Below are positions 19,380-25,999 of a stretch of 64,000 nt of DNA, piece by piece (within the stretch, counting starts at the first letter, position 1; each line of letters begins with the position of its first letter). Source of the DNA: an uncultured Gammaproteobacteria bacterium (GTDB taxonomy: Bacteria; Patescibacteriota; Microgenomatia; JAMCZE01); contig CAZNUP010000001.1 of the NCBI GenBank assembly GCA_964576435.1, forward strand, positions 294,795 to 358,794, given 5' to 3'. The notes under the pieces are model-generated. The model did no database searches, was not told the origin of the DNA, and saw nothing but the letters and a program-made list of their open reading frames with translations. The position numbers were made by a program, and so were the translations under genes.

Positions 19380-20174
19380 GTGGACAAATACTTGACCATC
19401 TACAAAACCCAAGTCCAAAACACACTTGCTTACCGAGGTCCTATGGCTTTGTGGATTATTGGCAATTTATTGACTGTATTTACTCTCTCTGCGGTGTGGT
19501 TGTCTGTTCCAACAGACGGGGCCATAGGAGGGTTCACTAAATCTCAACTTATTTCTTATTATTTGTTTGTATTAATTCTAAATTGGTTAGTTGTTTGGCA
19601 TGCAGCACACTATGTAAAAGAAGAGATCAAAGATGGATCAATCGGTCAAAAGGTCTTAACCAAGCCAATTTCCTACTATTTAAAAAATTTATTTCACGAA
19701 ATGGGTTGGCATAGCATCTCGCCTATCGCGGGATTAGTTAGTCTTGCAATCGCACTAGTTTTTTTGCATCCATATGTAGAAATCAACCTTAGCCTGACTC
19801 AGGTAGCATTTCTAATTCCAGCCATTTTTATGGGCGGAGTTATTTGTTTTTCAATAAGTCTGTGCCTAGGCATGCTTGCTTTTTGGTTCACAGAAACAGA
19901 GTCATTACACACATTATTATGGATCGGACTTTTTATGCTTGGAGGGCAAGGTATACCATTAAGTTTTTATCCACAAAATATTCAAAATATTTTGCTACTA
20001 CTGCCATTTGCTTACATTTTCTATTTGCCCTTGGAAATTTTTTCAGGAAAGTTAACTGTACCTCAAATGTCTCAAGGATTATTAATACAAATTATTTGGA
20101 TAGCCATATTTATATTCATCTATAAATTTATGTGGGCAAAAGGTACAAGAGCTTATCAATCTTACGGAGGTTAA
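19380..20174 (+). CDS. ABC-2 family transporter permease, type A, copy 1 (6-TM, approximately 264 aa)
   Basis: Polytopic membrane protein; paralogous to 20985-21779 and 24426-25223 (shared …Y(K/R)GP…W…, …LAFWFTE…, …LLPF(A/R/P)Y… blocks). Confidence 0.7.
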   Translation: MDKYLTIYKTQVQNTLAYRGPMALWIIGNLLTVFTLSAVWLSVPTDGAIGGFTKSQLISYYLFVLILNWLVVWHAAHYVKEEIKDGSIGQKVLTKPISYYLKNLFHEMGWHSISPIAGLVSLAIALVFLHPYVEINLSLTQVAFLIPAIFMGGVICFSISLCLGMLAFWFTETESLHTLLWIGLFMLGGQGIPLSFYPQNIQNILLLLPFAYIFYLPLEIFSGKLTVPQMSQGLLIQIIWIAIFIFIYKFMWAKGTRAYQSYGG

Positions 20175-20963
20175 ATGAAACGTTACATTAAACTACCATT
20201 TCTTATAGCAAAAGCCTGTTTAATTAGAATACTAGAGTTTAGGTCTGAGACTATTTCTTGGTCTTTTTTTGGACTTCTGTGGGCATTAATGATGTTAGTT
20301 TTTGTAAATGTTATTTTTAGCCAAGTTTCTGAAATCGGCGGATGGTCAAAAGGAGAGGTTTTAGTTTTGTTCACGGTTCAAGAAATTTTTATTGGTGTTA
20401 TGTGGGCATTTCTCATTCCGGGAATTATCGATTTTTCTAGAGCTGTAAGAAAAGGGGATTTAGATTTCTTATTTCTAAAGCCAATGCCAGCCCGTTTTTT
20501 AGTAACTTTTCAACGGTTTGAATTCGATCAATATTTTAGGATAGCAGTTTTAATATTTCTTTTGGGAGTTTTCTTAAACAATTTGGGAATAAATCTAAGT
20601 GTTATTAGCTTAACAAGTTTTCTCGTGCTGTTTCTTATGGGCATTATAATTTTTTATTCGCTATTTTTTTCAGTTTCAATTATCAGTTTTTGGTTTATTA
20701 ATCTGTTTAACTTGGAGGATCTTTTTGATAGTGTGTTGAATGTCGGAAAATATCCTTATTCTATTTTTCAAGGTGGTGCCAAATTTATTTTTTTGTATGT
20801 AATCCCAATTGGATTCATTTCCGCATTTCCCACTCAAGCACTGCTTGGTAATAGTATGTCACTCGCGATTCCAATTGCATTGATATTGACAATAGTTACC
20901 TTTTCTTTTTCTCAGCTTTTTTGGAGTTTTGCTCTTAAAAGGTATTCTTCCGCAAGCTCTTAA
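20175..20963 (+). CDS. ABC-2 family transporter permease, type B, copy 1 (approximately 262 aa, C-terminus …KRYSSASS)
   Basis: Start abuts the stop of the type-A gene. Paralogous to 21780-22568 and 25220-25999. Conserved RKGDLDF…LKP motif and identical C-terminal tail. Confidence 0.7.
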   Translation: MKRYIKLPFLIAKACLIRILEFRSETISWSFFGLLWALMMLVFVNVIFSQVSEIGGWSKGEVLVLFTVQEIFIGVMWAFLIPGIIDFSRAVRKGDLDFLFLKPMPARFLVTFQRFEFDQYFRIAVLIFLLGVFLNNLGINLSVISLTSFLVLFLMGIIIFYSLFFSVSIISFWFINLFNLEDLFDSVLNVGKYPYSIFQGGAKFIFLYVIPIGFISAFPTQALLGNSMSLAIPIALILTIVTFSFSQLFWSFALKRYSSASS

Positions 20964-20984
20964 CTCCGGTGCTAAAATAAGCTT

Positions 20985-23599: not shown

Positions 23600-24441
23600 T
23601 GACAATTCCAGTTGATTTCCCAAAATATTGGCAAGATTACAAACTTCTCGACTCTGGAAGTGGTCAAAAATTTGAATCATTTTCTGGCTTCACAACTGTT
23701 CGTCCAGACCCAAGGGCTGTTTGGCTACCAAGACTTTCAAATTGGCAAGCAGATGCCACATTTGATAGAAACTCAAAAGATGGTAAATGGGTTTATAAGA
23801 AAAAACCCCCCGAAAATTGGCAAGTAAAATACAAAGACTTAGTCTTCAAATTAAAACCCACTGATTTTCGCCATGTGGGCATTTTTCCAGAACAAGCTGT
23901 AAATTGGGATTTTTTAAATTCGACAATTAACGGTCAAAACATTAAAGTCTTAAATCTTTTTGCTTATACAGGTGCGGCAACTGTAGCTGCATCCAAAGCA
24001 GGAGCGAAAGTAACTCATGTTGACTCATCAAAAGGAATCATTTCTTGGGCAAAAGAAAATGCAAGCCTCTCCAAATTGCCGAGTGATGCAATTCGATGGA
24101 TTGAAGATGATGCTTATAAATTTGTAGAGCGCGAACAAAGGCGTGGTTCAAAATATGATGGCATAATTTTAGATCCGCCTCGTTTTGGCCACGGAACAAG
24201 GGGAGAAGTTTGGAAACTTCAAGATGATTTAGCAAAACTACTTATGTCTGTTAAAACTATTCTTTCTGATAACTCTAAATTTGTTTTGCTAAGTGTTTAT
24301 ACGGCCGATCTTTCTAGTATTGCTGTAAGTCAGCTAATGACAGATGTATTTAAAAGAAAAACAGAATTCTTAGAACTTGCCATTAAAGAAGACAGCTCCG
24401 ATAGGTTACTTCCAAACGGAATTGTATGCAGAAGTATTTAA
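23599..24441 (+). CDS. class I SAM-dependent methyltransferase, RlmI-like (PF10672-type) catalytic domain without PUA domain
   Basis: …VLNLFAYTGAATVAASKAGAKVTHVDSS…IILDPPRFG… motifs I/IV of Rossmann MTases. The ATG overlaps the ATPase stop (TAATG) and the 3' end overlaps the next permease by 16 nt. Confidence 0.65.
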   Translation: MTIPVDFPKYWQDYKLLDSGSGQKFESFSGFTTVRPDPRAVWLPRLSNWQADATFDRNSKDGKWVYKKKPPENWQVKYKDLVFKLKPTDFRHVGIFPEQAVNWDFLNSTINGQNIKVLNLFAYTGAATVAASKAGAKVTHVDSSKGIISWAKENASLSKLPSDAIRWIEDDAYKFVEREQRRGSKYDGIILDPPRFGHGTRGEVWKLQDDLAKLLMSVKTILSDNSKFVLLSVYTADLSSIAVSQLMTDVFKRKTEFLELAIKEDSSDRLLPNGIVCRSI

Positions 24442-25223
24442 CAGTTTTCAGTGTTTCTTGGCAAAATGGTTTTGTTTACAGATTAAACTTTGTTCTTTGG
24501 CGTCTTCGCATAGTCATTTCCATTTTAATTGTCTACTATTTGTGGACTGCTTTATACCAAACCAATCAAGTCCTTTTTGGTTACACAAAAGAACAAATGC
24601 TTTCCTATGTATTTTTAACTCTCATTTTAAGATCCATTGTTTTAAGTTTGAAAAGTTTTGATATAGCCGGGGAAATCGAAGATGGGAAGCTTTCTAATTA
24701 TCTTCTAAAGCCAGTCCGTTACCATTTGTATTGGTTTAGTGTAGATATGTCAGATAAGCTCTTAAATATTATTTTTTCAATATTTGAAGTAACAATTTTA
24801 TATTTAATACTAAGACCCCCTCTTTTCCTTCAAACAAACCCAGAAATCTTACTCATATTTGGACTAGCTTTAGTTCTTGCGGTTCTATTATATTTTTTTA
24901 TGGGTAATATTGCCTCTAATCTAGCCTTTTGGATGCCAGGGAATGCTTGGGGATTTTGGTTTATTTTAATTTCAGTTGTAGAACTTCTTGGTGGTTTGCT
25001 ATTTCCTCTAGATATTCTCCCAGAGCAGCTTTATCAAATATTAATGCTTCTGCCATTTCCATATTTAATATATTTCCCGGCAAATGTTTATTTGGGAGTT
25101 TTCTCACAGACGCAAATAACGACCGGTTTAGCTGTTACCGTCTTTTGGATCGTTGCACTATTTGTAGCAACAAGGGTTGAATGGAAAAAGGGATTACTTA
25201 TGTACGAAGCACAAGGAAGATGA
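24426..25223 (+). CDS. ABC-2 family transporter permease, type A, copy 3
   Basis: 265 aa; paralog of copies 1 and 2. Confidence 0.7.
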   Translation: MQKYLTVFSVSWQNGFVYRLNFVLWRLRIVISILIVYYLWTALYQTNQVLFGYTKEQMLSYVFLTLILRSIVLSLKSFDIAGEIEDGKLSNYLLKPVRYHLYWFSVDMSDKLLNIIFSIFEVTILYLILRPPLFLQTNPEILLIFGLALVLAVLLYFFMGNIASNLAFWMPGNAWGFWFILISVVELLGGLLFPLDILPEQLYQILMLLPFPYLIYFPANVYLGVFSQTQITTGLAVTVFWIVALFVATRVEWKKGLLMYEAQGR

Positions 25224-25999
25224 CTAAATATTTCACAGTTTGGAAAACAATGACAGTGGGTTCAATCCAAGAGGTCATTAGTTCTCAATTTGGCTGGGCA
25301 CTATTTGTGATCGGAAAACTTCTGCGCTTTTTTATATTTCTAGCATTCCTATTTTTTTTAATGTCAGGAGTTAACTCCCTTATTGGATACACAAAAGACC
25401 AAGTACTTCTTTTCTATTTAACTTTTGCAGTAATTGGTGGAATTGCTCAAATGTTCTTTAGAGAAGCATATAGATTTCGTCAAAGAGTAGTTTCTGGTGA
25501 TTTTGATTTTGATCTCACAAAGCCAATCCATCCACTTGTTAGAAATCTAACTGGGGGATTCGATGCCCTCGATTTAATTACCTTGCCAATTTACTTTTAT
25601 TTTCTAATTATGGCTATAAACGCTGTTGGCTTTACTCCACAAGGATTAGGTCTCTATATTCTGTTAGCAGTTAACGGATTTCTAATAATTACAGCAATGC
25701 ATGTTTTGATTTTGTCATTTGGAATCGTTACTTCAGAAGTCGATCATGCCGTTTTAATTTATAGGGACTTAGAAAATATGGCTAGGTTTCCCATAAATAT
25801 TTATGGTCAACCTCTCCAAGGAATCTTAACTTTCATAATTCCACTTGGAATAATTTTTACAATTCCAGCACAAGCTTTAATGGGTCTTTTGTCCTGGCAA
25901 ATGGTCATGGTCTCATTTTTATTAGGCGCCTTTTTCTTATGGGTATCATTCAAAACCTGGAATAACGCAGTCAAAAAATATTCTTCAGCAAGTAGTTAA
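25220..25999 (+). CDS. ABC-2 family transporter permease, type B, copy 3 (C-terminus …KKYSSASS)
   Basis: Start chosen at ATG 25220 (ATGA overlap with the upstream stop; MTKYFTVWK… matches the N-termini of the other B copies) rather than the ORF-track start 25181. Confidence 0.65.
   Translation: MTKYFTVWKTMTVGSIQEVISSQFGWALFVIGKLLRFFIFLAFLFFLMSGVNSLIGYTKDQVLLFYLTFAVIGGIAQMFFREAYRFRQRVVSGDFDFDLTKPIHPLVRNLTGGFDALDLITLPIYFYFLIMAINAVGFTPQGLGLYILLAVNGFLIITAMHVLILSFGIVTSEVDHAVLIYRDLENMARFPINIYGQPLQGILTFIIPLGIIFTIPAQALMGLLSWQMVMVSFLLGAFFLWVSFKTWNNAVKKYSSASS

Follow-up and report, generated by a model that had tools for sequence, protein, structure and literature searches.

The stretch of DNA analysed here, the window, comprises 64,000 nucleotides of contig CAZNUP010000001.1 (assembly GCA_964576435.1, GTDB lineage Patescibacteriota; Microgenomatia) and encodes, at positions 19380 to 25999, a single ABC (ATP-binding cassette) ATPase amid three pairs of permeases, each consisting of an A-type and a B-type protein, with a methyltransferase (MTase) gene between the ATPase and the third pair. 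The best overall explanation of this locus, which we hold to be probable on balance, is an exporter whose one ATPase is shared by a constant core pair and by exchangeable accessory pairs, into which a housekeeping MTase gene has been inserted. Adjacent A- and B-type permeases would form a heterodimeric membrane module that docks onto a homodimer of the single ATPase, and this ATPase would power each of three such modules, namely the core A3/B3 and the accessory A1/B1 and A2/B2. The accessory pairs would be gained, lost and replaced fast between relatives and, since they turn over in this manner, probably widen or change the exported material. A single, recent insertion would have placed the MTase gene between the ATPase and the core pair, where overlapping codons would couple its expression to that of its neighbours, a common situation in compact genomes, without giving it a role in transport. 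An earlier interpretation made from the DNA letters alone (the sequence-only reading) had proposed one nucleotide-binding domain (NBD) with three alternative heterodimeric modules and diversification by permease swapping; the comparison with related loci presented below supports this idea without proving the sharing itself, and makes it plausible that one ATPase serves several alternative modules.

All six permeases belong to PF06182 (ABC2_membrane_6), scoring 55.7-162 bits against a Pfam gathering cut-off of 22 bits and covering the full-length domain (about 225 of the 229 profile positions), so that the expected assignment to the ABC2_membrane families holds for six of six. The first accessory pair is formed by A1 (19380..20174, PF06182 2.4e-26) and B1 (20175..20963), the second by A2 (20985..21779, 8.1e-15) and B2 (21780..22568, 6.4e-47) and the core pair by A3 (24426..25223, 9.5e-19) and B3 (25220..25999, with a revised start, 1.3e-37), all encoded on the forward strand. 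A1 and A2 are 35% identical (E 7e-61) and B1 and B2 42% (E 8e-78), whereas A3 reaches only 23-26% identity to A1 and A2 (A1/A3 26%, E 3e-26) and B3 only 24-30% to B1 and B2 (B2/B3 30%, E 3e-19); even between A- and B-type proteins an identity of about 22% is found (E 4e-8). The family scores and pairwise E-values thus confirm a paralogy far beyond chance and bear out the earlier view of three paralogous A/B pairs. The same view had described a tandem triplication; the paralogy is real, but its recency was overstated, as the three pairs, judged by their divergence, are old and strongly diverged paralogues and not the product of a recent triplication.

The ATPase (22607..23599, forward strand, 95.9 bits and 4e-27 for PF00005) is the only ATP-binding subunit of the locus, as claimed before: searching the 64 kb window by tblastn (E<1e-3) detected no further ABC ATPase. 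Its translation displays a Walker A motif (GPNGAGKTT), the signature LSLGER, a Walker B motif (VLFLDEPT) and the sequence TSHYM; it is an ABC ATPase of the DrrA/ABCA type and has a C-terminal extension. With TIGR01188 (drrA) it gives 1.6e-61 and 208 bits, which is under the cut-off of 312, and it is therefore no DrrA subfamily member in the strict sense; the nearest sequences in the PDB are the NBDs of ABCA3 and ABCA1 and 4YER. Among its top 120 homologues the ATPase is 71-93% identical, with 85% to a Gottesmanbacteria protein, and no second match on the same 709,729-bp contig occurs among them. The sequence-only reading had named additional ATPase genes elsewhere that pair with these permeases as the observation that would speak against it; within the window and among these homologues none is seen. 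The permeases are much less conserved than the ATPase (25-70% identity), and the MTase is 56% identical to its orthologue in another Gottesmanbacteria genome. For comparison, close relatives have GroEL and Lon proteins of 76-87% identity; the ATPase is unusually conserved for a fast-evolving group.

A metagenome scan with the ATPase yielded 80 orthologous loci of 62-85% identity, which were annotated by BLAST and subsequently by hidden Markov models (HMMs) built from the loci themselves, the latter recovering diverged A-type permeases that annotation by BLAST only had overlooked, leaving gaps of about 800 nt. Pairs were counted in the 27 loci with at least 5 kb of upstream and at least 4 kb of downstream sequence: one locus has no A/B pair, four have one, 15 have two, six have three and one has four, i.e. 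at least two pairs per ATPase in 22 of the 27. The genomic layout of one ATPase for three pairs in the window thus recurs as one for two to four pairs in these 22 loci. Every locus has its A and B genes in strict 1:1 alternation, and a second ATPase of the same type is absent within about 10 kb from all 27. Three of them do contain another ABC ATPase within 10 kb, which is only 25-32% identical and is therefore assigned to an unrelated system. Based on these pair counts across related loci, multiple pairs around one ATPase are the normal state of the group and no peculiarity of the window. In a Gottesmanbacteria locus (L170), a third pair lies 7 kb upstream amid unrelated genes, without an ATPase of its own. 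Conversely, the ATPase orthologue of locus L151 (65% identical, approximately 8062-9093) is followed by miaA, and from 8 kb upstream to 10 kb downstream of it no PF06182 permease is found; its permeases must be located elsewhere or have been lost. In Paenibacillus, the canonical operon contains a single pair in the order A-B-ATPase.

These counts also bear on the alternative that the ATPase serves the core pair only, the accessory pairs either using an ATPase encoded elsewhere or being decaying duplicates without function. We regard it as unlikely. All six permease open reading frames (ORFs) are intact and of full length and have retained the residues that do not vary in the family, both in the coupling loop and in the C-terminal tail; a second ATPase of the type is seen neither within about 10 kb in the 27 loci nor, for the same 709,729-bp contig, among the top 120 homologues; and decay can hardly explain why loci with at least two pairs per ATPase are the majority. 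What can be said in favour of this alternative is that the inspected portion of the genome amounts to 64 kb, that accessory pairs evolve fast and often are lost, and that in locus L084 a gene on the reverse strand parts pair 1 from the rest.

The proposed distinction between core and accessory pairs within a shared-ATPase exporter is based on neighbour-joining trees, one of 101 A-type and the other of 92 B-type proteins. Both trees contain one large, comparatively conserved clade, which corresponds to the pair between the ATPase and miaA and comprises A3 and B3, while the accessory pairs are spread over at least five deep clades. Pair 3 hence is from a different, near-universal clade than pairs 1 and 2. 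Both accessory pairs of the window (A1/B1 and A2/B2) fall into one of the accessory clades (X), A2 being its second, diverged A-type member in the window, and would go back to an old duplication within this clade; the second accessory pair of loci L083 and L084 falls into another clade (Y), which is absent from the window. The phylogeny, suggested earlier as a way to date the duplications, is in keeping with an old divergence of the pairs. Close relatives with an ATPase of 92-93% identity differ in their accessory sets: the window contains two X pairs (X1 and X2), L168 only X1 (with orthologues of A1 and B1 that are 73% and 71% identical), L083 a Y pair in addition to an X-type pair that shares no more than 37-40% identity with A1/B1, and L169 three upstream pairs while lacking the core pair. 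Among the relatives sampled, none has a close orthologue of A2, whose best match is 40% identical. A3 is 68-69% identical in L083 and L168, and the genes flanking the same loci are 65-93% identical. Because the flanks are that similar and the sets nevertheless differ, the accessory positions can be regarded as a variable region on a constant backbone, and the differences between the sets fit diversification by cassette exchange.

The trees are likewise informative on a second alternative, according to which permeases of different pairs combine with each other (A1 with B3, for example) or all six join in one larger assembly. Such mixing is sterically conceivable, and the conserved cytoplasmic motifs are common to all A types and likewise to all B types. 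Yet, gain and loss always affect an A gene and its adjacent B gene as one unit, matching clades for these units recur in both trees, which implies co-evolution within the pair, and it is established for the solved type V exporters that two membrane domains are combined with two NBDs. Taking this together, we consider mixing or a larger assembly to be distinctly improbable.

Structural considerations are consistent with one ATPase shared by alternative modules. The structure model of B1 has the same fold as Wzm, KpsM and TarG, that of the type V (ABC-2) exporters, which is defined here by an N-terminal interface helix, six transmembrane (TM) helices, a coupling helix between TM2 and TM3 and similarity to Wzm/TarG/ABCG. 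In Wzm-Wzt and TarGH, the TM2-TM3 loop forms the coupling helix that touches the NBD. In the corresponding loop of B1 (model residues 94-111), three residues (G94, D97 and P103) do not vary among the aligned B types, and two more (L100 and F108) hardly do. When all pair clades are compared, conservation in the permeases is highest in this loop and in the C-terminal tail: mean column identity in the B types is 0.38 for the TM2-TM3 loop and 0.58 for the C-tail compared with 0.27 overall, the respective values for the A types being 0.34, 0.44 and 0.28. A shared engine would predict just this combination of divergent membrane bodies, a conserved docking surface and a frozen ATPase, which supports the shared-ATPase explanation but does not amount to proof. 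As to the substrate, the modelled fold suggests that an amphipathic or lipid-linked component of the cell envelope might be exported.

Turning to the MTase (23599..24441, forward strand, 280 aa), the sequence-only reading had recognised a PF10672/RlmI-like protein dependent on S-adenosylmethionine between the ATPase and pair 3. Family membership is clear, with 50.3 bits against a PF10672 cut-off of 27, and all 8000 scored candidates are homologous, many of them with more than 50% identity. By contrast, the protein does not match RlmI in the proper sense. The closest protein of known structure is the uncharacterised PDB entry 2IGT from A. tumefaciens (phmmer E 3.9e-61 over residues 13-275), and the structure model of the MTase (predicted local distance difference test, pLDDT, 92.8) matches 2IGT in Foldseek with a TM-score of 0.93 and 39% identity. 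The next structural matches are rRNA methyltransferases of COG1092, namely 3VSE (RlmQ-like), RlmI, SMU.776, RlmKL and RlmO. The MTase resembles RlmI (m5C1962), RlmK (m7G2069), RlmQ (m7G2574), RlmO and 2IGT in its PF10672 membership, its EEHEE-like N-terminal beta domain followed by a Rossmann fold and its invariant DPPxF motif, and differs from the Rlm enzymes in that no PUA domain was found in its 280 residues, in that the family columns contain no conserved cysteine (the single Cys277 is not conserved) and in its scores, which remain far below the respective cut-offs: 50-56 bits for the RlmI equivalogs (cut-offs 575-712) and 85 bits for the best RlmK/L family, NCBIfam NF008748 (cut-off 466). 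A cysteine-dependent m5C mechanism therefore is unlikely. The missing PUA domain (enzymes with it being about 390 aa long), the low RlmI scores and the absent cysteine set the protein apart from the RlmI/RlmQ type, and the low NF008748 score speaks against RlmK, the C-terminal half of RlmKL. What remains is membership in the 2IGT-like, PUA-less branch of COG1092, a group with five branches of which only some are characterised (PMC3367195, PMC10798245), and the branch of the MTase is one without a characterised member (PMC3367195, PMC10798245). The MTase probably is a PUA-less, 2IGT-like RNA methyltransferase of putative function. Structural modelling, proposed earlier as a means of telling RNA from small-molecule substrates, places the fold nearest to 2IGT and then to rRNA methyltransferases.

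The MTase is tightly connected with its neighbours: the sequence TAATG at 23597-23601 contains one base common to the ATPase stop and the MTase start, and the MTase stop codon (24439-24441) extends 16 nt beyond the A3 ATG at 24426, both junctions being as first described. From this arrangement a coupled modification-and-export or self-resistance function had been proposed, and a survey of the genomic context of MTase homologues had been recommended. Among the 66 ATPase-orthologue loci with sufficient downstream sequence, an A-type permease follows directly 3' of the ATPase in 53, and the MTase does so in five (the window, L083, L084, L168 and L169). These five loci represent an exclusive clade in the ATPase tree, nested among sisters without the MTase, and the sister lineages have the identical gene order except for this gene; locus L171 (ATPase 86% identical), for example, displays exactly the conserved order with one upstream pair and no MTase. 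Orthologues of the MTase in other Microgenomates (approximately 55% identity) adjoin PIG-L and suf genes, or yceG, and none of them has a PF06182 gene beside it. Among the matches listed for Clostridia, which are 43-52% identical homologues in 80 loci (L003-L082), no PF06182 permease is present either. The survey thus revealed unrelated neighbours (suf, yceG and, in L003, glmM/ecf), and an MTase lacking co-occurrence with the transporter in related genomes, which had been named as evidence against a link, is what was found, save in one shallow clade.

It should also be noted that in 67 of the 80 listed Clostridia loci the MTase has another ABC-type ATPase gene at a distance of no more than about 10 kb. 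In L003 (7615-14128), the only Clostridia locus annotated, the order is ruvB-glmM-MTase-ecfA1-ecfA2-ecfT-truA; the possibility that the ABC-type genes near the Clostridia MTase are ABC-F proteins was dropped, those in L003 being ecfA1 and ecfA2. In L003 (truA) as well as in the window (miaA), the MTase is found near a gene for tRNA anticodon-loop modification with ABC-type genes in between, which probably is a coincidence.

That the MTase is a functional part of the transporter, methylating the exported compound or, for self-protection, rRNA and recruited for this purpose, appears highly improbable to us, since the translational coupling at both of its ends, its retention next to the ATPase in five genomes through permease rearrangements and the ABC-type ATPase near most of the listed Clostridia homologues (ecfA1/ecfA2 in L003) are outweighed by the 53 of 66 orthologous loci with a permease in its place, the restriction to one shallow clade, the Microgenomates orthologues and 80 listed Clostridia loci devoid of PF06182 neighbours, the lack of biosynthetic genes for an exported toxin in the neighbourhood, structural relatives that, apart from the uncharacterised 2IGT, all are rRNA methyltransferases, and the occurrence of overlapping codons between unrelated genes throughout the co-directional block. 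The data are most simply explained by a housekeeping gene that entered a compact co-directional block once and recently; comparable blocks also hold miaA and, in L168, toxin-antitoxin pairs, and L084 contains a methyltransferase gene on the opposite strand. As a negative result, the MTase illustrates that codon overlap and co-orientation in genomes of the candidate phyla radiation (CPR) do not by themselves imply shared function.

Some observations fit less well with a shared ATPase and a merely inserted MTase and have to be weighed against this explanation. The MTase stays directly after the ATPase in five genomes despite the rearrangement of permeases; L169 keeps it beside the ATPase although the downstream pair is gone, which is the sole point for a link; and the overlapping junctions are kept in the three closest genomes. 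Its persistence is more than strictly required of a purely neutral hitch-hiker. The neighbour-joining trees carry no support values and are built from fast-evolving membrane proteins. Binding of the ATPase to any of the pairs, as well as expression of all pairs, is a prediction from the genes, and a more diverged partner ATPase may be encoded elsewhere in the genome, the search having extended to the 64 kb of the window and to the 120 best homologues.

Placing the transporter among known systems, it belongs to the uncharacterised PF06182 family of the COG4586/COG4587/COG3694 type. It has the same families as the 'natA-like' three-gene operons of Firmicutes (PF06182/COG4586-COG4587-COG3694), i.e. 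an A-type and a B-type permease with a DrrA-like ATPase, and differs from operons of the PF06182/COG4586 type in that the group of the window usually has two to four pairs per ATPase and in that the core pair follows the ATPase instead of preceding it. Some related Firmicutes operons carry a ppGpp riboswitch (ykkC subtype 2a) (PMC6003355); control of this kind is rejected for the window, in which a scan at Rfam gathering thresholds gave two tRNAs and no other family. Wzm-Wzt, KpsMT and TarGH are type V exporters of lipid-linked glycopolymers with a homodimer of one permease, whereas the window would encode A/B heterodimers. The fold of its permeases is alike, but sequence identity to Wzm, KpsM and TarG is only 8-11% and no glycosyltransferase or polymer genes are adjacent; membership in the Wzm/KpsM/TarG families was dismissed on the grounds of this low identity, the heterodimer and the missing glycan genes.

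The sharing of one energising component has precedents. Group II energy-coupling factor (ECF) transporters use a shared EcfAA'T module. ABC ATPases of the shared ('multitask') kind, among them MsmK/MsiK and FhuC, energise several membrane modules (PMC4519317, PMC10147376). MsmK/MsiK, FhuC and ECF systems all mediate import and have folds of type I, II or III; their membrane genes usually are scattered and accompanied by substrate-binding proteins. In contrast, the window would encode a type V exporter, with alternative heterodimeric modules in one operon-like block, as far as can be told from the genes alone. Shared ATPases thus are documented for importers. In the literature we found no functional characterisation of PF06182/COG4587/COG3694; as far as our narrow searches show, multi-pair PF06182 loci in Patescibacteria have not been described, and similarly narrow searches found no family of type V exporters with an ATPase that routinely lies amid several alternative heterodimeric permease pairs. 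If true, sharing would offer very small genomes a compact route to widen their export capacity and would explain why few proteins of the group are as conserved as the ATPase; the accessory pairs would stand out as a part of the cell envelope machinery that changes fast and possibly defines the niche. Going further, one may tentatively speculate that in CPR bacteria of the Microgenomates type one ultra-conserved NBD is the common engine for rapidly exchanged, Wzm/TarG-like heterodimeric cassettes (a constant core and zero to three variable accessory pairs), an exporter counterpart of the modular ECF/MsmK systems in which the cassettes would set the exported envelope or surface molecules and thereby be tied to the interaction with host or environment; we see this broader proposal as possible, with the odds somewhat against it.

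A search with PADLOC returned partial matches of mad3 to ATPase residues 136-233 (2.4e-25) and of mad2 to MTase residues 91-235 (3.5e-16), and none for the other six proteins scanned. An anti-phage defence system of the MADS type was rejected, the matches reflecting partial similarity of generic domains and the neighbours being housekeeping genes.

Regarding the layout of the locus, nine ORFs were confirmed on the forward strand at the coordinates given, and from 18767 to 32035 all sizeable ORFs are on this strand, with neighbours separated or overlapped by few bases. The start of B3 most likely is at 25220 rather than 25181, because relatives L002, L084 and L168 have a 259-aa call; this start creates an ATGA overlap with the A3 stop and gives a product of 259 aa with the N-terminus 'MTKY', which fits the permease family motif, and the span of pair 3 (24426-25999) is unchanged by the revision. 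The GTG start of A1 at 19380 is backed by the N-terminal 'xKY' motif of the family ('xKY...YR' of the A-type permeases), while the public automatic gene call in L001 (5845-6576) begins A1 21 codons later (243 aa). A scan of the window for promoters and terminators performed no better than on shuffled controls and does not inform on transcription units. Among the named homologues, the best belong to genomes of the Microgenomates group, Gottesmanbacteria and Patescibacteria.

The region is part of a gene-order block that is conserved in candidate-phylum bacteria of the Microgenomates type. In relatives the order is GroES-GroEL, further on HU, a DHH gene on the opposite strand, which encodes a DHH phosphoesterase, permease pairs, the ATPase, a permease pair, miaA, bPH_2, a response regulator, a histidine kinase and Lon. 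The miaA gene (tRNA dimethylallyltransferase, 26000..26824, forward strand, TIGR00174 172.8 bits against a cut-off of 148.65) is the context gene 3' of the core pair; it is kept beside this pair far more widely than the MTase (L089, L094, L105, L113, L163, L164, L171 and others) and often abuts or overlaps B3-type genes. Upstream of A1, a membrane protein of 198 aa (18767..19363, forward strand) is encoded, which is not part of the transporter core and probably is bPH-like: it has no Pfam match and weakly resembles the downstream bPH_2 protein, with the TDRRV motif in common (E 0.038). It is kept 5' of the ABC genes in L083, L168 and L169 with 48-77% identity. Two membrane proteins of about 200 aa, this one and the bPH_2 protein (26793-27395), hence bracket the transporter block.

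Insertions into related blocks were observed as well. Locus L168 contains toxin-antitoxin modules at the edges of the transporter block (2448-2889 and 8474-9012; a HicA-type pair and ParE/Phd), and junctions at the block edges therefore tolerate insertions. In L084, a multi-domain methyltransferase of 463 aa (5927-7318, reverse strand; TRM5/TYW2, PrmA and RrnaAD-type matches) is encoded between accessory pairs 1 and 2, and the block consequently is split into at least two transcription units in this genome.

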